Source: Lophium mytilinum
Taxonomy: Eukaryota
DNA length: 64,000 nucleotides
Assembly (NCBI GenBank): GCA_010093605.1
Contig: MU004198.1
Span: forward strand, 126,726 to 190,725
Direction: 5' to 3'
The translations under genes and the position numbers were made by a program. The notes under the pieces are model-generated. The model saw only the letters and a list, made by a program, of their open reading frames with translations, did no database searches and was not told the DNA's origin. The stretch's first letter is position 1, and each line of letters begins with the position of its first letter. This document shows, piece after piece, positions 2,720 to 61,484 of this stretch.

Positions 2720-3870
2720 AAAGTTTACCTCGCCCTTTTCTACCACTCATTGTCGTACTCCTCCGAATTGAAAGCTGATTACCTCGTGCAACTTCATCTT
2801 TGCGAACGGTCTTCCAACCAGAACCATCCTATTTCCAGAGCTGGATCCCTTCTATAAGCATTCTGAGTCCACGTCTTTGCGCCTATCAGAACTCCTCGTC
2901 CATTGCTAAGTCTTCATCCAGTATTAGAGAAGAACTTCAAGCTTGTGCAACGTGCTTGTCGGAGAGAATCAGTGCTGCGGATGCGTCAAGCATCTTAGTC
3001 GGCCCTAGACTGTGTTCTACGATGGTTGGAGAGCTAGAGTGTGGAACGCTGGAATTGGCGCTTGAGGCACGGCTATATCGATAACTCAGGTGATCGACGG
3101 CATGTAGAGACTATAACGAAGGGTCCTTAAATATTGAAGAAGCATAAGTTAGCAAGTCTGACGCTGAGGCGAACGAATCGTTTCGGGAGAGCCCTCACTC
3201 TCACGCGGCTCGTCAACTCTGGCTTGGACTCGTAGTCGTCGTCGAGGTGATTTGCTGGCTTAGAGAGCTCTCGGGGAATCGCATATAGATTAATGGGGCT
3301 TGTGGCTTTTCAACTGGGGCCTCAGACTCGCCATCTAAAGTGAATTGCGATCAATCGAGTCTCTGGCTAATCGAGTCTAGCTTGGGACGTCGTCGAGGAG
3401 GTAATCTGATGGCTCAGAGAGCTCCGTACGGGCAGCACATGAAGCAATCGGTATTTGGGTTGTCAACTTGGGGATCTCCGACTGCGGCGTGGTTTCGTCG
3501 TTGTCGGTGCTGCGCAAGGGGAAGCCCATGAAGCGATCGGTATTTGCTTCTTCGACGTGGGGCTCTTCGACTGTGGCTTGGATTCATCATTATCGTCGTC
3601 GTCGTTGTTGAGGTGATCTTCTGGCTCAAAGAGCTCCGTACGGGCAGCACATGGAGCAACTGGTATTTGCTCCGTTAGCTTGGGGCTCTTCGACTGCGGC
3701 GTTGACTCGTTGTTGTTGATGCTCCGCGGGGGAAGCCTATAGAGCAATCAGTATTTGCTTCTTTTGGTTTCATATTTTGTTTCTGTCCGAGATGTTAACA
3801 GAGATCTGTAGATCAGACAACTAGAATAGGGGAAACTCACTGTTTTTTGTGGCCATTTGTGGATACATGG
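2720..3870 (-). pseudogene. Possible decayed gene with internal repeats
   Basis: Protein-like reading (e.g. ESKPQSKSP..KQIPIA; DLAMDEEF**AQRRGLRMLIEGIQLWK*) is interrupted by stops and frame changes. Intron-like signals occur near 3125-3205 and 3807-3840. Confidence 0.3.
3395..3775. repeat. Degenerate tandem repeat, about 212-bp period made of two related about 100-bp subunits
   Basis: GGCTCARAGAGCTCCGTACGGGCAGCACATG occurs at 3411 and 3623. GTATTTG recurs at about 3451, 3540, 3663 and 3751, followed by TGGGG..CGACTG in the first three. Confidence 0.8.
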
Positions 3871-3888
3871 AGATTATTCTGAAGTTTT

Positions 3889-4155
3889 GATCTGAATTTT
3901 CAGGATGTATTGGGGGACCTCACACAGTGGTCAACAGGCGTACGCAGACAAAGGGGCTGTCGGTTTTGTTCAGGGCCTCGCAAACATGGAGTATATCCGG
4001 ATTGCGTTGAGATTTGATCTGGATTTCCAGAATGTACTGGAGGACGACACACGGTGGTCAACGAATGTACCCAGATAAGTGCTGTAAAGTTGATCTAGAC
4101 TTTGAGGATGTATTGGAGAAACTCAGACGGTGGTCAAAGACTGTACGCAGATAGG
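3889..4155. repeat. Three diverged about 63-bp direct repeats
   Basis: GATCT(G/A)..TT..AG.ATGTA.TGG.G....CA.AC.GTGGTCAA....GTAC.CAGA starts at 3889, 4016 and 4092. Confidence 0.75.
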
Positions 4156-4830
4156 ACTGCTGTGGATTCTGTCCACGATTTTCAGAACATATCGGAGTAC
4201 CCCAGATAGCGGTGAGGCAAGTGAAGTTATCGCTTGACCCGTCGCAAAGCCCAACACTAACCCTATCGCTATGGATGCCTCCAATAGAAAGCTTCGAGTG
4301 ATGGAAACTGCAGCGAAATACATGGGCAACACACGCCCTCTAGGTTAGCGTACGAAAAGCCTAGTACCACTTGAGGTCCTGTAGTACATTATGAGAGATC
4401 GGTAAGGGACAGTGTTGACAAGGTTGATAGCCTTGCGGGCCACCTCAAACGGTGTCGTACTATCGCTTTATGTTCAACAGCAAGTTCGAGCGTTGCGCCA
4501 TGACGGGATACGAGATAGGAAGCGTGCAATGTCTCGGTATCTTTATCAATAACAGAAAGGGTTGAATACGATAGTAGAAACACTCAAGCTCAGTCACATC
4601 AGAAAATGCTTTTATTCAAGCTAATAATACAGAAGTTCGAATTGAAAGACTAGAATACAGCTTTTGACCGCCCACCGCATCTAAACATCAGAGCAAAGTG
4701 AGAAGTACTACAGGATATAAGAACACGACAGTCAAGAATGTAGAAGTAGCAGATGAAAGCCCAATCAGACGCCCTGAGCCTCCTGATCAACTCCAAAACT
4801 CCAACTCCGGAATGAGAGCCTCACCTCAAA

Positions 4831-22121: not shown

Positions 22122-22751
22122 CGTTGGACGTGAAGAGAGTGTTTGGAGGTTTTCACGTTTAGCTTAGGAGGTGATGATGGGTTGCGTCACGGCTGTTCTG
22201 TCTGATCTTATAGAAAACTGCATGGTCAAGGCGTTTGGGTCAATGGCGTTCTCGAAAGAGGTAGTAGAAGGGACAGTATAACATGTCCTTTATATCCAGC
22301 CTATGTAAGTTTTATACCTACTCGTATAACCGGCATCGTTGCCCAACAGCTGGTTTAGATACAGTACTAAGCCACAAGTCTGGGCACATAGACTCATTAC
22401 AGCTTGGCTCCAACTTGCTCGCTCGACACCACTGTCGGGGGTACCCTGGCTGTTGAGCAGCCAATTAGTCAAGAGGTAGTCCAATCTGCACTGCTTGAAC
22501 CTCGACATCACCCTTGGATCTTCGAAATCCTGTGGGGGAACCCCATGCGGTGTCGAGCTAGTGTGCCCAGACTTGTGGCCTGTAACTGTATATCACTACC
22601 ATATGCGTTCATGTTTTCGCAGTGTCTGTTTTGCGGCCCCGTAGAACTGAATGACGGGAAACAGAGTTTTGCCGTGCGTTATTCCCGGTTGACGAGAGCG
22701 TTGATAGCTCTAGCTAGCACTGGATGTAACACAGCAACAATCCTTCCGCGT

Positions 22752-38561: not shown

Positions 38562-39276
38562 GGTGGGCGAAGGAGTGTTGGGTGGCTAGAAAGACAAACA
38601 GAACTAGAGAAAGAGGGTTAGAAGCTGCGCAGTGATGGGGCTTGAGCAGCGGTGGTTGTGCGGTGGTTGTGGAGCGGGTGAGGCGATGAGCAAGGCAGCG
38701 GGCGAGGTTTTGTAGTTGGAGCTGGGTGCCAGGTGGTGATGTAGAGGTGAAAGCTAGGTACCGACGAACGCGCTACCCTAGGTCCGAGCGCAGGCCGCCT
38801 CAGGAAAGTCATCGACCTCGTTGGAAGCACCTCGACCAACAAGCCTTGCTTTGCAATCCGTGCCACCCTCAACGCTGCTTAGTACTGCCTGTCACGCCCA
38901 CCTGGTGTCTGATACACACGGCGCCGTCGTGCTCAAAGAGGCAATCCAGCAGTTGTCGTGTCGCCGCCATCCCGTCCCAAACCGTCACCTTGTGGGAGCC
39001 TCATTTATCTGCCTCCGGGGCAACGGCTACACTAATCTCTTCGGGGCGTCGAGTCTCAGCACAGTTTATGGAAGGTTGACGAAGGTGAATGCGAGTTCCG
39101 AAATGCCCACTTCTATTACTACACTCTCTCCCAATCATGCCTCTTGCTAGACTAATTTACCTATCGTCATTGATACAACTTGATGATAACCTCCTTCTTG
39201 GATGCAAAGCAGAAGCGCTAGCTCTGTCAGCAGCGTAAACATTCGCAGTCTCCAGCATTCACCATGATCTTTCTAA

Positions 39277-40461
39277 ATGACAATGGCGTGGGCATCTTTG
39301 CTTTTTAATTTTCAAAGTCATCATCAAATTCGTACTCTACCAAGGACACGTAATTGCGAACTCCTCAGCCTCTCTCCGCCTCCCTACTACAACCCAACCA
39401 GCAAACCAACCCCCCCACCACAACCTCCAGCAATCAACCCGACCAGGGCTTGCAGAATGAGTCCTCGAAGCGACTGTCCACAGCAGCAGTCTGATAGGTC
39501 TACAAGCGCCGTTGGTCGGCCTCCTTCACCCGCAGAAACAACAGAAAACCACAATAACTCGCTGCCTGACTTGCCCCAACAAGCTATGGCTAACCGATCC
39601 ACGGCTGATGACGTCCGTGGCTTTGTTGCCCTCTCTGACGACGGTATCCTCTCTGACGACGGTGCTCTCTCTGACGACGGTATCCTCTCTGACGACGATT
39701 ATTTCGACGACGATGATGCCGCCGATATGGCCTTCACACACGAACGCAATTCCGAGTTGTCTGATCGCCCAATGGTGAAAGAGTTTTTTAATAAACTCCC
39801 CAACCTATCAACTCTAGCAGATCCAGAAACCCGTTCCTGGCTCGGTGATTTTCCTTCCGACATTTGGGAGGATGCTATTCCGCTCTTTACAGATGGGGAT
39901 CCTAAAGAAGCGGCTTCAACGGATTACCAGTTGCATCCTTGTTACACCCGCCTTAAACTTCGCAAAGCTGCACTACAGCCCCATCCGGACATCTTTCGAC
40001 TCTGTACAAGAAGTCGGTGTATCTACAAGAAAGTCGTCTTAGGTATTGGCTGCCTTTTCGTTAATATCCAGACCAACAATGGCCGAAAGTCGAAGTGGAC
40101 TGGCTACGAGATGTTTGTAGACCAGAATCTAAGACTTCTCATGGTTTTTGACTCTGGATCACTCAAGCATGCAATGAAAGACTGGTTTCCATTTGGGTGT
40201 AGACTCTCGTTATCACGCCCTCAGAATACTAGCAACAAGCAACACAATTGCTTCAAGATACTAGAGGAAGCGCCTTTTGGTTGGGCTGTCGTTTCAGACT
40301 CCTTGCAGTCAATTCATCAAGTTTCCTTTGACGACGTAAACAAAATGGTGGCCGATACCTTTCAAAACACAACAGGAGTGATTCAGGCGGATCAGCTCGA
40401 AATCCACTATATCAATACGATTTTTCCGGATGTTCGTCCCAAATCAGCGTCAAAGGCCTAG
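39277..40461 (+). CDS. Hypothetical chimeric protein (AIG2-gene-derived N-terminus plus unrelated domain); the start may be 39457 or later
   Basis: 394-aa ORF. ACRMSP..PQQQS.RS...NSLPDL.QQAMAN...RGFVAL matches the N-terminus of the 40864 ORF. Confidence 0.65.
   Translation: MTMAWASLLFNFQSHHQIRTLPRTRNCELLSLSPPPYYNPTSKPTPPPQPPAINPTRACRMSPRSDCPQQQSDRSTSAVGRPPSPAETTENHNNSLPDLPQQAMANRSTADDVRGFVALSDDGILSDDGALSDDGILSDDDYFDDDDAADMAFTHERNSELSDRPMVKEFFNKLPNLSTLADPETRSWLGDFPSDIWEDAIPLFTDGDPKEAASTDYQLHPCYTRLKLRKAALQPHPDIFRLCTRSRCIYKKVVLGIGCLFVNIQTNNGRKSKWTGYEMFVDQNLRLLMVFDSGSLKHAMKDWFPFGCRLSLSRPQNTSNKQHNCFKILEEAPFGWAVVSDSLQSIHQVSFDDVNKMVADTFQNTTGVIQADQLEIHYINTIFPDVRPKSASKA
39631..39697 (+). repeat. 18-bp coding tandem repeat (LSDDG(I/A)), about 3.7 copies
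   Basis: CTCTCTGACGACG starts at 39631, 39649, 39667 and 39685. Confidence 0.95.
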
Positions 40462-40863
40462 TGCTCTGTGGGCTCCCGCACTGCCTAGTCCTTGACATCG
40501 CGCCTAGATGTTTTAAGGCTCATGAGGGTGCACCGAGCAGTGGTAAGCGCGTGTGCATAGCGTTCTGGCTTGTCACTGTAGAGCTCTTGTGGACTCTGTG
40601 GCATCGTTGCAGGAAGTTAGATCCTTTATATCCTCGTTTCGGCCACTCGTTCTCAGTAAAGGCTCCTGCCAGACTACTTCTCCTATGTCTGTTTCTACAA
40701 CTCGACGATGACTTTCATCGTGGATGAGTTGTAGGAACCCTGTTCTGCCAGCAGCGTAAACATTCGCTGTCTCGAGCATTCACCCCGGCCCCTCTAATTT
40801 TTAACGGTCTGTGCGTCTTTGCTTTTTTGTCTTTCAAAGTCTCCACCAAACTAGTACTCTGCC

Positions 40864-41478
40864 ATGGCTTGCAGAATAAGTACTCCAAACAACTCTCCAC
40901 AGCAGCAGTCTGAGAGGTCTGCGAGCACCGTTGGCCGGTTTCCCACACAAGCACAAACCACAGGAGACCAATACAACTCACTACCAGACTTACTCCAACA
41001 AGCTATGGCTAATCAATTTTCTGCTTATGACCTCCGCGGCTTCGTCGCTCTTGCGGAGCCTCCAATGTTCCTCTTCGGCTCCATCATGTTCCCGTGGGTC
41101 CTCAACATGGTCCTTGAACTTGACGACCCTCGGCAAATGGCACAATTGATGACCCCTGGTAACATTCGAGGATACGAAGCGTATGAGATCGAGCATGCGT
41201 ATAACACGACTATAATACCATCAGGGCACCCAGGGAAACAAGTCAAAGGCCTAGTTCTCTGTGGGCTCAATGAGGTGGGTGTAGAGGCGGTGGAGGACTA
41301 CCTCGGGTTGGATCCGCCGAGCTATCTTCGGAAAGAACTTGCTGATGTAGAGATCACTCTGTCGGGAGGAGAGAAACGGACCATCGGGGCTGTCTGTTAT
41401 CCCTGGGACGGAGCCCGGACACTCTTACGGCCATGGCCAAGAGACATATCCACAGGATCCATATCGAATGTCTCATGA
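40864..41478 (+). CDS. AIG2-like / gamma-glutamylcyclotransferase-fold protein
   Basis: PMFLFGSIMFP..., MTPG.IRGY, VKGLVLCGL, VEITL...AVCYPW. The usual D.FEG motif reads DYLG, so the protein may be degenerate. Confidence 0.7.
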   Translation: MACRISTPNNSPQQQSERSASTVGRFPTQAQTTGDQYNSLPDLLQQAMANQFSAYDLRGFVALAEPPMFLFGSIMFPWVLNMVLELDDPRQMAQLMTPGNIRGYEAYEIEHAYNTTIIPSGHPGKQVKGLVLCGLNEVGVEAVEDYLGLDPPSYLRKELADVEITLSGGEKRTIGAVCYPWDGARTLLRPWPRDISTGSISNVS

Positions 41479-42533: not shown

Positions 42534-43196
42534 ATGCGTCTCCCCTACGTCCCCAACCCTCCAGAATTCTCAGACCCCGCGGATCAAGCAATCCTCGAGC
42601 GAGTCCAGGAACGTCGAGGCGAGAGAGGTCTCTTAGAGCTAGATCGTGCCCTACTACACTCGCCTCCTGTGGCAGATGGCTGGTGAGCCTCATCAATCAC
42701 CACTGCCCTGCAATGCCTTTCTCTATTACTACTTCCGTCCCGTAAACGTACGCCTCTCGATTCTAACTCCGCCTTCATCAGGAACTCCTTCCTCGGCGCC
42801 ATCCGCACCCGCACCACTATACCTGACTCTATTCGCGAAACCGCCATCTGCCGCGTTGCTGTGCTGAATAACGCGTGGTACGAATGGGGCCATCATGCGC
42901 CATTACTTGATAAATGCCCGGGGGTCACAGCAGAATTTATGGCGCACATAAAGAACGCACCGCTTGGTCTGGAAGTGGGAGCGGGACCGGATCGGCCCTG
43001 GGATGAGAAGCATGCTGCGGTACTGGCGTATACGGATCAGATGACGATAGGGGTGAAGGTGGAGGATGGCGTGTTTGCGGAGCTAAGAAGGCTGTTCGAT
43101 GAGAGGGAGGTTGTGGAAATCACAGCGACGGTGGCGGCGTATAATTGTGTGAGTCGGTTTTTGGTGGCGCTGGATGTTGGGGAGAAGAATACATGA
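42534..43196 (+). CDS. AhpD-like / carboxymuconolactone decarboxylase family protein, 2 exons
   Basis: MRLPY..LLELDRALLHSPPVADGW/NSFLGAIR..RETAICRVA..YEWGHH..VAAYNCVSRFLVALDV; predicted intron at 42683-42781. Confidence 0.88.
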
Positions 43197-43810
43197 GGGA
43201 TGGAGGTTTCTACGTTTGGATGTGTTGAAATACTAGGGCACCAGTCCGAACATTTTGCTTTGCAATGGGTTAGCTCTGTAGGTCCAGAAGCCAAGAATGG
43301 GTTGCAGGGTCGTCGCTGGTGTAAATGGGCGTTGCCTTGAATGCCTCTCGACGAGGCTGCAAGGGGGCTGTCTAAGGATCCTCCTGGGTTGAATATGGAA
43401 ACTTCGAGCTTCCGGGCTGACACACGCTCCCCCAGAGCACCCTAAATATCAAGTAATGAGTGAAGTTGTACTGTCTGGAGTACTCCGTATGATCTTATAC
43501 TGCACTTCGGCGCTCTGATTGGCTGGACAGGGGCTGCATCAGCGCAAGGACCACGCCGCAGCTCAACTTCGCCCTCAAGATCACCAGGCTAGGACACTAG
43601 AAATACACCACCTCCCGACCATCAGGCACAATGACTCCCTCCCAAGTTTTTCGGCGACGACAGATATATCCTGATGTATCTTTGACAACTCCCAAGAACA
43701 TCTCCTTTCTCGCTCTCATTCCCACTATCGCAAACTTTGCCTTCATCTGTACCTGCTCTTCTGTACAATCTACGCGTTTTTGTCACTTCGAGAGTCGATA
43801 GTTGATCAAA

Positions 43811-46602
43811 ATGTCTGAAACCCAAATCAATCAACCTTCGTACTATGAGTCTATTGCGTTTCCAGGGGTTGGAGATGGATTTACCGAAGCTCTCCGCCTC
43901 GATGACTTTGCACCATTCTATGAGCTTGGATCCCGCATCCCTGACCCCGGGTACGAACCTGACTGGGTAGGTTGCGTTTTCTTATGATACGCAAATAATA
44001 TGATCATGCTGACACTAAGGTAGACTATGGCCGACGAGAAACCAGACTCAGCTGAGCACGACGATTGGACTTATTCTCAGGGCATTCCTAATGTTGCCAT
44101 GAATGATTTCACAGCCGACGAGTTATCCATAGAACCACCACTGTACAAGTGTTTGTATCCTCCATGCACATACGCCTCCAAGCGTGAGTCAAACTGTAAG
44201 CAGCACATGGAGAAGGCCCATGGCTGGGAATACGTACGCTCCAAGAGCAATGGACGCAAGAAAACCACCGCCGGCGGAAGCGAACGCAGCCCCCCAGCCT
44301 CAACTTTCGGTAGTGCCCGCACTGGTATGCATTCGCAGGACCTCCCTGCTTTTCCTCGCCACAACTTCGTAGAAACCGCCCTCATGCGAACACTTGGACT
44401 TTGGACCGAACTGGGCCCAGATGAGAAGTCACTCTATTTCAATACCCGTACAGGGAAGTTCGCGAACGAGTTTCCACAAGAAGACATCGTCAATTTGGAA
44501 GGGTCGAGTACTATCTCTGCTGGTCCTATGTACATTGCCGCGTCCAACGCTGGAAGGACGTCAAGCGCAAATGCACCAACAGGCGACATATTCGGTATCG
44601 CGCAGGATATTGAACCCCTGCCCGAAACGTCAAAACGCCCACGCCGCGCTTATCCACGGTCAAAATTCTCCTTAGAATCGATCGCAATACTCGAGGCATG
44701 GCTCGACGACCACGGAGATAATCCATATCCTTCCTCAGTCGAGAAAGTCACACTCGCCAGCGAGGCCGGCCTCCGAGTACAGCAGGTGGATAGGTGGTTC
44801 ACCAACAACCGGAAACGTCGGTTGAATGCTGTCGAAAAATGGCTTTCGTCTTCATCTGAAGATGAGGACGTAGTAAATGCTGCGATGCGCTCTGCGTCCC
44901 GAATATCTGTTTCCTCGATGAACTTCGGAACCCAGTCTCCATCGTCTAAGGCTAGCTCCAGCGCTGCATCAACTGTTTTGTCAAGCGCAAGCTCTGCCTT
45001 TTCGCAGTCAAATGATGCGGTGTGGAAGGTGTCGAAGAACAAGCGCGGAACCAAGAAGTACTTGATGAAAGACCTACTGCCTTTGCCAACCAGCAAGCTG
45101 TCCAAAGGTTTTCAATGTACATTTTGCTCCCAGGAGTTGACTGAGAAAGCCTGGAGGAGGCATGAAGAAACCCAACATCTGCCAAGAACTAAATGGGTCT
45201 GCGGTTTTGACCCCACGACGGTTATGGAACGCCCTTGGAATTTGACTTGTCTTCTATGCCCGAAAAGCAGCCCTGGGTTTGAGCACTACCAGCTTCATCA
45301 TCCTGAGGTGGTCGACTGCTTGCAGAAGCCCAAGGAGGACCGCACTTTCTACCGAAAGGATCACCTTGCGCAACATTTTACCAACGTCCATAACGCACAA
45401 TTGAACGGCGTCACAGCGGATCTCTCTAAGCAAGAGATAGACTACTCCAATCAAACTTGGAACTGTGGCTTTTGCGGGGAGATACTAGCTACCTGGGACG
45501 TCCGGGCACGCCATATTGCGGCTCATTTCCGAAATGGTAGTCACATGTCGCAATGGGACTCTGCCCGCCAAAAGGAGGAACATAATAGCAGAACGAGGGC
45601 ACGGCCTGATTTTCCCTCGCGCCGGGCTCGTAGTTTTAAAGAGTGCGAACGGTCTACGCCTGACAACGGTCTCTTCGAAACCGACAAGTTTGATAACAGC
45701 ATAGACTTACCGCCAGCGCCCCAATCAATGATGTCACAGTTTAACTTCAAGGTCTCTTCGAGCTCGCAGAAGAAGCACAAGTGCAAGATTTGCGACAAGC
45801 GATTCACCCGCCCTTCTTGATTAACAACCCACATGTACTGCCACACTGGCGAGAAACGTAAGTCCAATGGCCGTCAACACACAATACACGTCGCTGACAA
45901 AATCTAGCATTCGCATGCGAGGTTGAAGGCTGTGATCGTCACTTTTCCGTTGTCTCGGCACTAAGGAAACACCGCAGAATACACCGAAACGGGTCGCTTT
46001 CCGACTCTTCCGACATGTCTTCACAGCAGGCCGCTCCACCGGTAGCCACTCGGTTTGAATCTAGCATCGGAAACGAGTCTAAAGTAGCCCTGTTTGAGCT
46101 CGGAAGCACTTCGCCTTCACGACCCGCTCCCGTGGCACTCGACGACCGACAGCAGTCCCAGCTAAACACCATGGGCTACGACCACCTCCGCTATCCCGCA
46201 CCGCACTTTTCGAACCCGTGGAGGTCGGGCCCCGCCGCGCCTTCATCGCAGATGTATCCCGCGTCTGGACTCGAGAAGTTTGAAGGTGTCAGTCAGCAGC
46301 ATGTTCAGAGGCCAACGAGCCTATTGCTCCCCTTCCACAACCTCCCCGTCACGGCGCCGCCCCTAGGATCAGGTATTAGTCTCTCAGATGGCACGTTCGG
46401 ATCACAAAACTTACTTCACGCTTCGCAAGATCTTCTCAACCCGGCAAGGACGTACAGCGGAAACTCGTCAGCCTCGCCCAATGCTGCCTCATATGCCCCA
46501 ACGTCAGCACCGAAATATCTCATGGACTACTCCAACAACTCCAGAAAGCCGTATGCGTACCAGCAGGACTCCCTCCGCCAACTTCTTCGAAATTCAAGTT
46601 AA
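43811..46602 (+). CDS. Mosaic TALE-homeobox / C2H2 transcription factor with in-frame TGA at 45818-45820 (truncated allele or pseudogenised tail)
   Basis: Predicted introns at 43967-44023 and 45858-45907. Homeodomain ...NPYPS...WFTNNRKR; C2H2 FQCTFC, RKDHLAQH, WNCGFCG; extra SltA-like and MtfA-like fingers. The frame continues past the TGA into ORF 46015-46602. Confidence 0.8.
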
Positions 46603-47740
46603 GAGAGAATAGTTCAACCCGACCCCGATTACCGACAGGAGACCAAGTTCGAAGAAATCGCCCTTGCGAATCCACGAATAGTCTTTTCTCAGGCATAGAG
46701 CGCTCACACAGAGGAAAAGAAGGAGTAACCGTTCTCGAAAACTCCGGACCCGGTCCCTCGCAGGGACCAGCTAGGAAAAGGAACTTAAGAACTTTAATTG
46801 CGGGGCTACTGGACATTGACCTCTCAGACTCGGTATCGACAAGGTTATGCTTGCCGCCTGCTCCTCCGCCAGCACCAGCAAACCTCACATTTGCACCCTC
46901 TAGACAAGAAGACAGCCTCTTGTGTAGATTCAGCAAGCGGCGCTTTTCTCTTGTCAGCACATTGGAAGTAAATTAGCCACAGGAACGGTTCTGTACATAA
47001 GTCAGGATCCGTTTGAATATACACATTATTGCTAGGATATTGTCCCAGATTCGCATGAGAAGGGGATGTTGCAACCGTCGATTTTCAACCCTCGACAAAA
47101 TTGAGGAGACATCGAGGTCGGATTTGCAGTACGAGATCATAAATCTGGGCACACGGATTTATCAATCTCTAGCTTGAATCTTGCTCGCTCGAGACTACTG
47201 TAAGGGGCCCCACTGGCTATTCATTAGGCAGTCAGTTAAGAGGCAGTCTAATTTGCACTGCCTGGAAGTTGACATTGGCCTTGTGGTCTCGAAATGCGGT
47301 GGAATCACCCCAAACAGCGGCGAACTAGTGTTTTTACTGTAGGTCACGAAGCTGAGTACTGGAAAAGAGATTTTATCAAAGCTTTCTTGTCCATAATGTT
47401 TATACACGTTGTATTCAAGCAGTACATAGACAGCTACACTTCCCTATAAATTCATTCAACCCGAAGATCTGTCAGCGTCCTTCTCCTGAATCGCACTTGT
47501 CATGGATCAAGTCCCATTTCCCTCCTACTGGAACACTCGAATGCCTTCCCGACCGAACCGACAGGTCACAAAGCGTCACCTCATGCATCAGGCCCCTTAT
47601 GAAAGTCTTTTGACGTATTACTACCGAGGACGAAGAACCCCATGACCTAACCCCAACCCCTGAAACCACAAACCCTCAAAGAAGAGCACCGCAAACCCCA
47701 AGCCCAACGCCTCAACCCGCTCCCCCCATTTCCTCACACC

Positions 47741-57149: not shown

Positions 57150-58378
57150 ATAAAACTAATACTTACCTGCGCCGCTTTCTCTCTATATATAGCACCGCTG
57201 CTATAGCTATTACTAAATTAAATAGGGCTGCCTATAGTACTCTACTACAGGAGAATTTAGATCTTTATCTTAAAGAGCTTAATAATAATAAATAGAATAA
57301 CTTTAAAGATAAGAAGCTTAATAAGGAATTAGATAGTAACGGCGAGCTACTAGTAAATTAGCTACCGCAATATTATAATAATCTACTATATACTTAGTAT
57401 TCCTTTATAGATTATTTTAATATAATTAGTAAGGAAACCTACCGCTATAAAATATAATTTAGTAAGCCTAAGATTCTTACGCTCGCCCGTTTATTCTATC
57501 TTAATAACTGCCGGCTTAATTACTACTACTAGGCCTCTCTAGTAATAAAGCTATATATTATTCTATAGCGCCTTACCTTTCTATAATAATTTAGTAATAT
57601 AATAGCTATATTTAGGCGTAGTAGGTAGTAGATTTATAGTATTTTCTAGAATATAGTATAGTTTCTAGCTTATTACTATAAAGCTTATATATTCTAGAAT
57701 AGAAGAACTTTAACGCGCAAGAAGCTAGAGGACTACACCGCGGCAATAGAAAGGCACCTAGGAATTAGTAAAGTTTAGAGCTATATTAATAGAACTATAC
57801 GGCCTATAGCTAATTCTAATTATCTAGAAATATAGGTAATAATATACTCGGGCTATAAGAAGATAACTTACCTTAAGTTCTAGGCCATTATTATGCTAGA
57901 TAGATTAATTTACTCTCTTACCGGCCCTTTTCCGGGCTCTACAGGCAATTTTAAGATGGCTAAGAAGTCTAGATTAATAATAAAGCTAGAGTAGATATAT
58001 AAGGGGCTACTAGTTAAAGAGATTCTATATCTCTATAGTAATTTAGCTTATATTAATAGCTGGGGCATAATTAGAGCCTTTAAAGGTAGGCTAATTAACT
58101 ATATAATAAGGCGGCCTAATTAATAGTAGTATAATAGAGAGCTAGTAAGCCTCTAAGTAGCTATTAAGTATAGCTTTAGTTTAGTAATAAAGTACTAGAG
58201 CTTTAGATTCTATTATATAGCTATAAGAAGTTATTAATTACCTATAGGCAGCTATTATATTATAGCAGTTCTTCTAATAAACTATTTAAGCTATTTCTAG
58301 GGCAATTAGATAGTAGATAAGTATAAGATAGGCACGCCTAATATAGAGGAGTACCTAGGCGTTAAGAAAGTAGTATAG
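57150..58378 (+). pseudogene. RIP-destroyed HARBI1/DDE_Tnp_4-type transposase (5' end approximate)
   Basis: One frame from 57773 reads V*SYINRTIRP, YSGYKK..LKF*AI, GPFPG, LYSNLAY, L*VAIKYSFS, AVLLIN..GN*I..EEYL. Reversing C>T/G>A changes gives VWGYIDGT.RP, LKFQA, LYGD.AY, RVAIEH.FG and VLLTNC..GNQ. Confidence 0.88.
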
Positions 58379-58699
58379 TATTAAGAATAGAATTAAATAT
58401 AGCCCTCTAGTAGCCTTTCTATTTTATATAGCCTTACTATAACTAATTTTAGCCTATAATATTATTACTACCTAATAAGTAAGAATTTAACTAATTAGAG
58501 GCCGCGCTAGGCCTAGCTCCCGCTCGCTAGCGAAATAGGTAAGGAAAATTAAACTACTAAAATAATAATAAAGTTTAATACTAATATATTTATACCTAAG
58601 TTTTAATACTAATTCTATATTAATTTACTCTAAAATAATAAGAGACTATAGTAGAGGACTGCAGCTATAATTTATACTAATTATATTAAGGCTAGAGGT

Positions 58700-59950
58700 A
58701 ATAGCGTTTAAACGCCCTACTCCCCTCTTATCTAGCTTAAAATATCTAAGTTTCTAGGCGTATTAGGGCCGCAATTCTTTAAGCTAGGTAATCTATTAAG
58801 CTCTATATCTAGAGTTTCTAATAGATCTATAACCTCTATATTCTTCTTCTTATTCTCTTTATTATAGCTAACCTTTCTACTACCTCTATAAACCTCTCTA
58901 GGCCTCTACTAGTTACTAGAGGCCTTACTAAGCGCCTTATAAGGACTAGCGGGCTCTAAAATTAGCCTTAGAGTACTTAAAAGCGCCTAAATAAGTACCT
59001 TATTTAATTTCTTTTAAGCCTTAATTAATACTATATTATAGTAGACCTAGGCTATTTTACGCCGCTACTTGCGCTCCTCTATATTAATTCTATACCTATT
59101 ATCTTAAAAACGCCTCTTATTCTATACTACTATAAAGCCTTAATATTAAGAGGCTTTCTATAGTACTGTACTACCGCTTTAAGGCTGCCTAGATCTATTA
59201 TTAACTGCCTTAATACCGCGCTTTCTACCCTGCTCGGCCGTAAGGTTATAGATAATATTAGCGCGGTTCTACCTGCGGGCGTTAAAGCTAGGTAGGCCCT
59301 TATAGTGCTTTTTAAAGTTATTATTAACATCTATAGTCTTATTAATTATAATATTAAGAAGTTAAGTATACTTTATATCTCTCTAGATAGTTCTAGTCTT
59401 ATAGCTTTACTTTTTACGCTTCTTAATACGCGCGTCTATTACACGCTATAGAAATTAATAGTAGTTACTATACTTATAGGCACGCTCTATATAAAGTAAC
59501 CGGCGATTAAACTCTAGTTATATTTTATTATCTATCTACCTTTTAAACTCTCTCTTTTTATATATAAACTTTAATTATATATAAATCTAAAGAAGTAATA
59601 GCTTCTTCTTCTCTAAGAGCTGCTAGCGCGTGTTTAATTATACTATAGTATAGTTTAGAGGATTATATATTACGCTATTATATAGATTCTCTTTCTTAAT
59701 ATTATTATCTTTAATTACTAGAGGAATAGGCGGCTTCTATAATACTCTAGTTACTACTCTAGGCGTAGCTTCTAGCGTAGCTCTAGGTATAGGCCTAGGG
59801 CCTATATACTCTAGCTTCTTATTTATATTATAGTTATAGAGAGGTAGATAAGGCCCCGTAGTTAAGATAGGCTAGTAATAGCTACTAGCAGCTACTTAGT
59901 AGTAGAAGTTATATACTAGTCTAGGGTATAGGCTCTTACTACCCTTATTA
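58700..59950 (-). pseudogene. Probable RIP-destroyed second ORF of the element (Myb/SANT-like accessory protein expected)
   Basis: Minus-strand reading gives charged helical relics (LEFNRRLL.IERAYK, DARIKKRK..KTRT). A second ORF is expected in PIF/Harbinger elements. Boundaries are approximate. Confidence 0.4.
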
Positions 59951-61484
59951 AGTAGATAAGTAAATTAAGAGAGGGTAGGCTAATAAGATAATATTATAAA
60001 ATAAGGTAGTAAGTATTAATTTTTCTAAGTATATTAATAAGAGAATAATTCTAATAGCTTAGTTAACTTAGGTAAAGATTTCTTAGTAATATAGTATAAG
60101 AAGAACTTAGCCCTCTTAAATATAAATATTAGCCGGCTTCTTATTAATATACTCCGCCTTCTATATTATTATCTATATTATCCTCTATACCTCTAGGTAG
60201 TAATTCTTTCTATTAAGAATAAGTTAATTAAACTGCGTATTCTATACTAAATTATCTAATATAGCTAGAACCTTATAGATTAATTATAAAGAAAAAGAAG
60301 AATATTTAAATAATAAGTAATTTATACTACTAATAGTACTAAGCCCCGCACCTATATTACTAAACTAATAATCTTTAACTCTTAATTACCTTATTAAGCT
60401 AGCAGGTTTATTACGGATTTTAAGGCTATCTAGTCTTAGTATTAGGGTAAGGCTAACGCCTTATATAAACTAATGCTGGGGGCCCCTGCTAGTAAAAATT
60501 TATAAAATTCTTGTGCTAATAATTGTAATAGGGGGTTAATGCTACAACGTATTAATATACGTGTTAAATAGCCTGTTTTGGGTAATGCATGCGGTTGCGG
60601 TATGCGTCTACTTATGCACCACATCCGCCGGCCTGCCGTCTGGCGTCCCTCTCCCATCCCATTCCAAATTCTTGATAGCCTTCGCCGTGGGAGCACCTGT
60701 ACGTAAAACCATCTCGTGCTTCTGCCGTGTCTCTACCTCTGCTATTGCCCCACACCAAGACGTCTGACGTCCACCGCAGAGCCCTGAAGCGCGCGCTGTC
60801 TCGCATATGTCGTGGCCCTGAAAGCGCGTGCCCGCCCCGCTTACGGTAGCACATGCTGCTCGGAGTGGCACTTCATGTCGATGTGTGCACAAGCAAGGTT
60901 GGCGACATGTCGACAGCACGTTGATTTTGACAGACCGTGTTTCTTACCGACACTACTGTTGACAGACTCGGCACCCTGCATGTCTTCAGCCGCCCTAAGC
61001 GTGCTTAGGACGACATCGGCTGCCCAAGGGTCTGGAGTAGTGGAGTCGCAGTACTCCACCGCGGGGCAATGCCAACGAGCATCGTGAGAAGCCTCCTGCC
61101 TCCGCTTCCCCAGCAATAGGCTTTGTCTGCATATCCGTCTCTTGAAATCTGCACGCTTATCAGCGCCATCACATCTCAGCAGTAGCACTCGCCGCAGATT
61201 GGCCCTGTGACTGCTCGGAACGCCCTCTTCTGTGATTCCGTGACAGCTGGAGACGGTGGATATGGATTCCTGTCAGGGTACAGTACACGTTGACATCGCG
61301 AAACGCTACTGCTGGCCGCCTGGCGCTGCCATTGGCTCGCCCAGGCTCATCGGCGGCACGCAATTATCTAGCCTCAGGCTTGGAGTCGCAATTGGAAGAA
61401 GCGGTGGGATGCACTCTCCGGCTTGGGCCGGCACGACGCGTTTGCTATCGATAAGCCTTCGGAGAGAAACACGAGTGCTCCCTC

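Follow-up and report, generated by a model that had tools for sequence, protein, structure and literature searches.

A gene of the fungus Lophium mytilinum appears to have acquired, on separate occasions, short pieces copied from the DNA of two core regulators of its own genome. The gene lies at 43811–46602 on the plus strand of the 64,000-nt stretch analysed here, which we call the window (GCA_010093605.1, contig MU004198.1, positions 126,726–190,725), and its backbone makes it a member of the fungal family of transcription factors that combine a TALE homeodomain with C2H2 fingers, with DNA binding and a regulatory role predicted. Three high-identity inserts in its frame derive from two intact single genes, ace1/sltA and flbC, both on contig C5 of the same genome (G000). 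We favour an account, with a probability of about 0.6, in which an old acceptor gene captured these pieces serially through ectopic DNA copying, the copies escaped repeat-induced point mutation (RIP), and the outcome is a rewired regulator of 650 amino acids with a constrained Ace1 finger. A prediction made earlier from the letters of this DNA (the original prediction) had proposed that an accessory homeobox-C2H2 gene repeatedly captured core-regulator fragments in frame, and the donors, the sharp insert ends and the frame all support it. It had also placed four segments in one spliced frame, the inserts called (a), (c) and (d) and, as (b), the homeodomain and finger array, and translation found each where it had been placed. 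The frame comprises exon 1 (43811–43966), exon 2 (44024–45857) and exon 3 (45908–46602), all on the plus strand, and has 894 codons with a sole internal stop, at codon 651. Its features are the following.

43503–43634, plus strand: upstream element in common with the broken paralogue L002 (82% identity, 135 nt), probably a promoter or 5′ leader.
43811–43966, plus strand: exon 1, 52 codons, backbone, present in L002 too; N-terminus of the annotated product P0003, with 52% amino-acid identity to L031 4579–4734.
43967–44023, plus strand: intron 1, 57 nt, GT..AG, seen as a spliced joint in run X3.
44024–44134, plus strand: start of exon 2, backbone; homology to the paralogue reaches about 44118 (in a local alignment of the DNA, 1 shuffled sequence of 300 scored as high).
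44135–44302, plus strand: captured piece (a), from ace1/sltA (zinc finger 3 with the basic tail); donor G000:C5:1280304–1280471, 155/168 nt.
44303–44641, plus strand: linker of unassigned origin, unmatched in the own genome, the paralogue, the orthologues and 13 HMG loci.
44654–44818, plus strand: TALE-class homeodomain, backbone (PF05920, PF00046; Meis, TGIF and Pbx matches).
45110–45568, plus strand: family-specific C2H2-type array, backbone (alignment A1).
45569–45704, plus strand: backbone linker; homology to the paralogue reaches about 45670 and takes in the first Cys of the tail finger found in the paralogue (none of 300 shuffled sequences scored as high).
45705–45974, plus strand: captured piece (c), flbC leader and finger pair with intron; donor G000:C5:807928–808197, 224/271 nt.
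45818–45820, plus strand: early stop codon (TGA) within the recognition helix of the first FlbC finger, where the donor codon is Ser (codon comparison).
45858–45907, plus strand: intron 2, the flbC intron retained with its length (50 nt), phase and position; spliced in X3.
45985–46131, plus strand: linker between the flbC pieces, not donor-derived, with a weak likeness to the paralogue behind its tail finger.
46132–46572, plus strand: captured piece (d), from flbC (147 N-terminal codons, counted from the second ATG); donor G000:C5:808616–809058, 405/443 nt.
46573–46602, plus strand: tail of the read-through frame, with TAA at 46600–46602 (frame translation).
42536–43196, plus strand: upstream CMD/AhpD-like gene, outside the chimera, a synteny marker (weak PF02627, E 0.005; blocks of 67–100% identity with L084).

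When positions 43200–47200 were used as the query in a DNA search of the whole genome, the donors were matched with E values of 3e-63 to 3e-178, at 92% identity for (a), 83% for (c) and 91% for (d). At every insert end a single 15-nt step is enough for identity to drop to background, and these ends lie near module limits such as the start codon and finger ends; for (c), the flbC similarity extends as far as the final His (about 45984). Separate best matches at other loci with sharp boundaries and a matching intron, the support that the original prediction had asked for, were thus what the search returned. Its statement that none of the donors is present in full is right for the window; elsewhere in the genome both are complete, on C5. 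Reverse whole-genome searches with the donors revealed no further copy of either donor's pieces besides the chimera. The donors lie at 0.81 Mb and 1.28 Mb of C5, 470 kb apart, which may reflect chance or chromosome contact.

The assignment of (a) to SltA/ACE1 stood: the donor (L004) has a three-finger array in translation, three matches are named ace1, and 71 orthologues agree with it. The other two assignments fell. MtfA is rejected as the donor of (c), since the database labels, which are automatic, read FlbC for nine and ‘C2H2 conidiation transcription factor’ for four of the 120 listed orthologues, and MtfA for none; all 120 listed matches span 95–100% of exon 1 of the donor, which by these labels is a full orthologue of 380 amino acids. 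Another locus, L056, is presumably the MtfA-type gene, although the protein atlas supplied no name for it, and a literature text search with finger motifs returned no paper. A separate third donor for (d) is rejected as well, because (d) comes from the start and (c) from the end of one and the same flbC reading frame, so that the pieces stand in swapped order in the chimera. MtfA and FlbC have been described as distinct proteins, 25% identical (PMC3774644). For the linker at 44303–44641, an HMG-box origin found no support in the own-genome search, the atlas or 13 short stretches that partly cover 18 HMG matches.

The template of piece (c) was either DNA or unspliced RNA, because the flbC intron is kept, and the intron loss that marks a retrocopy is absent from this piece. 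DNA-level capture had been proposed originally from this intron, and the length and phase of the donor intron bear it out. Inserts (a) and (d) cover no donor intron, so that they do not discriminate between an origin from DNA and one from mRNA.

Because the TGA at 45818 terminates the protein at 650 amino acids, most of the FlbC-derived sequence is untranslated. The annotated product (P0003, labelled ‘hypothetical protein’, Lophium mytilinum, in the collection) excludes finger 2 of the FlbC pair and the entire piece (d), which is in frame yet downstream of the stop; the original prediction displayed the stop but not this effect. The contigs of runs X1, X2 and X3 over the stretch (24 of 100 pieces listed; contigs only) show no alternative letter at 45818–45820, and neither editing of the TGA nor its read-through is supported. 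An in-frame ATG at 46171, in good context, might start a 143-amino-acid FlbC N-terminal peptide behind the stop, which is speculation. Within the product, the homeodomain matches PF05920 (Homeobox_KN) at E 5.7e-15, with 55 bits against a cut-off of 24, and PF00046 (Homeodomain) above its cut-off, and its best matches in the PDB are Meis1, Meis2, TGIF and Pbx. The array holds every invariant Cys, His and Trp ligand of the family (27 family proteins in A1, including P0001). The protein encoded by (a) is identical to the Ace1/SltA donor at 53 of 56 residues; in the FlbC finger pair of (c) all eight zinc ligands are unchanged and the helix and DNA-contact positions are altered.

Judged by divergence, the acceptor gene is old and the inserts are much younger. 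Between the backbone and its paralogue or orthologue the proportions of silent (pS) and replacement (pN) differences are 0.76–0.84 and 0.28–0.30, and pS between insert and donor is 0.25 for (a), 0.37 for (c) and 0.18 for (d). The paralogue L002, 137 kb away among different neighbours, has the upstream element, exon 1, the homeodomain and the array, without the inserts. The metagenome locus L084 encodes nearly P0005 and resembles P0004 closely. Collinear blocks show the same CMD-like gene ahead of it (a synteny that concerns the upstream side only), and it has no inserts and a different zinc-binding tail. No obvious donor pieces were seen by eye in the own paralogues L003–L017 with 1.5-kb flanks, among the matches listed. 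Homology to the paralogue ends some 17 nt short of (a) and some 35 nt short of (c), and a weak similarity returns behind (c) (P 0.0125, from a set of 24 protein tests); the FlbC finger pair probably replaced an ancestral tail finger.

All six insert junctions are bridged by difference-free, separately assembled contigs of X1–X3 among the pieces listed, and the donor alleles were assembled as contigs apart from the chimera. In X3, both chimera introns and one intron of the upstream gene are spliced, with GT..AG borders. X1 and X2 are one sample, possibly the source of the assembly, and none of the runs is on record as RNA. One X3 contig (42500–44182) connects the CMD-like gene upstream to the chimera across the spacer and has both introns removed, and overlapping or read-through transcripts are possible there.

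Selection was assessed with a binomial test, uncorrected for multiple hits, whose null is a copy that evolves neutrally while its donor stays constrained. Piece (a) differs from its donor by 10 silent and 3 replacement changes, only one replacement falling in codons 1–54, and departs from the neutral copy with P 0.006–0.02 at equal rates. The silent and replacement counts are 18.5 and 16.5 for (c) and 19.5 and 15.5 for (d), and the pooled inserts give P 0.002–0.03 at equal rates. On these counts only the Ace1 finger looks clearly constrained by purifying selection. Replacement changes are almost wholly private to the copy, set against 71 ace1 and 120 flbC orthologues. RIP is present in the genome, as seen from a block at 57.5–60.5 kb of the window with a GC content of 0.31 and a composite index of 1.66; this AT-rich block (57500–60500) is probably a relic transposon. 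The chimera has a composite index of −0.42, and RIP is rejected as the cause of the insert differences since these are without C-to-T bias. Duplications that share 155–802 bp are reported targets of RIP, although some small ones escape it (PMC11628664).

Comparisons across the family indicate that members of the subfamily gained core-regulator pieces separately, and that different lineages drew repeatedly on the same donors. Relatives were gathered with the whole protein and with the core alone, the core searches yielding 169 and 4618 of them (E 0.001). In a tree of the array with 97 rows, a short-branched clade of 34 rows has no marked carrier, and nine marked carriers are scattered such that at least seven changes are needed. 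With the cores masked, a panel of 21 loci matched 11 of 53 long-branch proteins and none of 33 from the conserved clade (Fisher P 0.005, rows not independent); own loci, P0128, P0030, P0027 and P0175 did not enter this comparison, and P0022 came only from an insert-containing query. Ace1 pieces stand before the homeodomain in P0012 and behind the array in P0229. FlbC fingers lie between homeodomain and array in P0010, P0022/P0085 and P0333, another place and branch than in the chimera, and the P0085/P0022 lineage has both the FlbC N-terminal motif and the FlbC fingers. P0008, encoded on a 1.6-Mb genome contig, carries a C2H2 finger trio, presumably CrzA-like. Pieces in P0124, P0265 and L093/P0309 match other single genes of the Lophium genome at 56–71% in the best blocks, exon 1 of the L093 piece reaching only 28%, and L093 and L102 keep an intron at the donor intron position. 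Extra Pfam domains occur in some members (Zn2Cys6, CENP-B-type helix-turn-helix, Myb, PX, WW_2, DUF3295, PF24537 and PF24818), and the pieces of many carriers are degenerate. Of 34 metagenome stretches scanned with P0012, none was confirmed as a locus. The metagenome loci L092 and L093 are related genes, 73–75% identical in three blocks, with different foreign pieces (Myb, C2H2, PF24537), an extreme patchwork. In P0062 an Ace1 block lies within a CreA-like finger pair, and P0049, of another subfamily, has Ace1 fingers, which would extend capture beyond the homeobox-C2H2 acceptor.

Considering these data together, the acceptor would be an old accessory TALE-homeodomain/C2H2 gene of a fast-evolving subfamily, in which the regions flanking the two conserved cores take in foreign DNA. 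Short stretches of the genome's own ace1/sltA and flbC entered its reading frame separately as DNA copies, most likely by ectopic, template-switch break repair rather than by way of a transposon or mRNA. Templated insertions have been reviewed, chiefly for animals (PMC9779921). Small pieces unlinked to their donors may evade RIP, and fragment capture would then be a way around it. Selection would retain in-frame arrivals temporarily, followed by birth and death. At present the gene would specify a 650-amino-acid DNA-binding regulator in which the Ace1 finger and basic tail give the homeodomain and array an extra contact to DNA or protein. The FlbC pair would have supplanted the tail finger, after which the contact positions changed and a nonsense change silenced it, in that probable order, so that the FlbC pieces may now be in the course of being lost.

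Several observations weigh against this account. Constraint is not significant for (c) (P 0.09–0.3) or (d) (P 0.09–0.22), and under a twofold rate in the donor lineage nothing but (a) stays below 0.05, and this at the lowest transition bias only. Carriers are a minority: when 24 C2H2 loci of the own genome served as a panel, with a minimum identity of 50%, seven of 277 family proteins matched, and only one of 80 metagenome loci matches the panel (13 of 80 read by eye). Of ten proteins checked, nine are singletons that come from short-read data, and some of them may be misassembled, although the pieces that they carry have diverged. The paralogue is already broken. The full transcript asked for in the original prediction is represented by the two introns spliced in X3, but no single RNA contig covers the gene, and X3 is itself only guessed to be RNA.

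Among the alternatives, we entertain tentatively a wider form of the same idea, in which a Pezizomycotina-wide homeodomain/C2H2 subfamily would serve as a standing integration scaffold and each capture of modules from the same few master regulators (Ace1/SltA, FlbC, CrzA-like, Rpn4-like and others) would be selected, through redirection of a regulon or as bait. It is unlikely, on balance, that the gene is a near-neutral mosaic, a decaying and dispensable gene whose loose regions tolerate passengers and whose open frame is a mere survival filter. The nonsense codon in (c) fits such a course, as does the compatibility of (c) and (d) with neutrality; private changes fall at residues invariant in 120 orthologues, L002 and a probable second capture (L055) are both broken, and degenerate pieces occur in many carriers. 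However, over codons 1–54 the Ace1 finger and tail show ten silent changes but a single replacement, the eight FlbC zinc ligands are intact and the same donors were drawn on again in other, separate lineages.

A decoy or competitor, an option raised in the original prediction by loose analogy with the integrated domains of plant NLRs (nucleotide-binding leucine-rich repeat proteins), is improbable; its modules would mimic Ace1 or FlbC for their partners, for proteases or for a foreign effector, with homeodomain and array as the output. Its donors are central regulators, cut near module limits, a second lineage (P0085/P0022) has FlbC N-terminal motif and fingers together, and some family members contain pieces that do not bind DNA (PX, WW_2, DUF3295). 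Against this, the Pfam search of the protein showed no NLR, HET or signalling domain, the neighbours are housekeeping genes and the FlbC pieces lie behind the stop.

We regard it as quite improbable that transposon transduplication, by a Pack-type DNA element or a Helitron, built or moved the pieces. The process is known in a Dothideomycete (PMC3538342), a decayed repeat resembling a miniature inverted-repeat transposable element (MITE) lies 525 nt downstream of the gene, and the paralogue sits 137 kb off among other neighbours. But between 40000 and 50000 no terminal repeats or target-site duplication surround the gene or the inserts, each piece has a single copy besides its donor, there is no transposase, the gene occupies its ancestral position and the MITE-like repeat is one-sided with its inverted ends lost. 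For a Helitron, general repeat searches turned up no repeated ends; no dedicated scan was made, and old ends may have decayed.

Very improbable, too, are a single, circularly permuted capture of flbC through a DNA circle, and donors in a sister lineage whose prior constraint would explain the low ratio of replacement to silent change. The C-terminal piece does precede the N-terminal piece, one position of (d) shares its residue with the nearest flbC orthologue and not with the donor, and that orthologue is 99% identical. Two separate flbC captures are nevertheless favoured over a circular one, because the linker at 45985–46131 matches no donor flank on either strand and silent divergence differs between (c) and (d) (P 0.016); and (d) has lineage-typical residues, nearly all other changes being private. 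An assembly chimera is hardly credible even if X1 and X2 are the source sample, because difference-free contigs bridge every junction and the introns are spliced in one run, with inserts 8–17% diverged from donors whose alleles assemble separately. Nothing found pointed to one collinear orthologue, to separate transcripts or to a chimeric assembly, the three outcomes that the original prediction had named as counting against it.

Further possible captures and repeats were noted in passing. A 482-bp copy of a finger region in L055 (1350–1827; G000:C5, ~2.381 Mb) is 78% identical to L054:1243–1720, has an intron at the place of that of L054, stands behind unrelated coding sequence and is broken by stops, provisionally a probable second capture. 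L049 (G000:C13, ~399 kb) is an unrelated long reading frame that ends in a degenerate finger trio, which we take to be CrzA-like; provisionally, it may be a capture by another acceptor family. L053:1255–1695 and L068:1246–1695 share a 450-bp finger block at 81%, preceded in L053 by what seems by eye a RING/IBR-like region, again provisionally. The MITE-like repeat of ~230 bp occurs at 22359–22591 with terminal inverted arms and, decayed, at 47127–47340, with copies on C4, C18 and C19. An adjacent tandem pair of small genes (39122–39632 and 40644–41051) is 73–78% identical, and 3388–4163 of the window holds degenerate tandem repeats of 76–81% identity.

In the open-access literature, subscription papers not being covered, we found no prior description of recurrent core-regulator module capture by the homeobox-C2H2 family. 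The recurrent capture of such pieces by a host transcription factor family would be the new element here; the dual type of factor and fragment capture by transposons are known. Plant NLRs with integrated domains form a subfamily that independently and repeatedly takes up domains of conserved regulators. The repeated uptake is alike, but the chimera has no NLR part by Pfam, and its family's integrated pieces often decay. According to Shelest (2017, PMC5415576), dual homeodomain and C2H2 factors occur in 60% of fungal genomes, in up to 27 copies, and arose mostly by duplication and not by new fusions. The backbone of the chimera likewise joins a homeodomain to C2H2-type fingers, whereas its modules were copied recently and several times from identifiable single-copy donors, a behaviour confined to the fast subfamily. 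FlbC is a C2H2 regulator of conidiation (PMC10253035). The chimera copies its finger pair, intron and N-terminal motif, but with the order swapped, the middle missing, the DNA-contact residues changed and a stop in finger 1. Of the three-finger C2H2 regulator Ace1/SltA it has the third finger and basic tail, ahead of the homeodomain, and the full gene is intact on C5. Transduplication has been reported for hAT and Tc1/mariner elements in Pyrenophora tritici-repentis and for plant Pack-MULEs, with a preference for transcription factors reported in plants (PMC3538342). Those events, too, involve DNA-level, in-frame fragments with introns, but the chimera is without terminal inverted repeats or transposase, is single-copy at its ancestral position, and its acceptor belongs to a host gene family.

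In filamentous ascomycetes, RIP is thought to block the origin of new genes by duplication, and multi-domain fungal transcription factors have so far been read as ancient fusions spread through duplication. With donors and chimera in one genome at 83–92% identity, the steps of capture can be ordered, and fragment capture below the RIP threshold becomes a testable route to regulatory innovation. The gene also offers a tractable case for asking whether one captured finger alters binding, and such chimeras risk being mislabelled as orthologues of Ace1, FlbC or CrzA. If the wider scaffold idea were true, fungi would have in this subfamily an analogue of the NLR clade with integrated domains, and a means of bypassing RIP systematically. 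The chimera points to a little-noticed way in which fungi may build new regulators.

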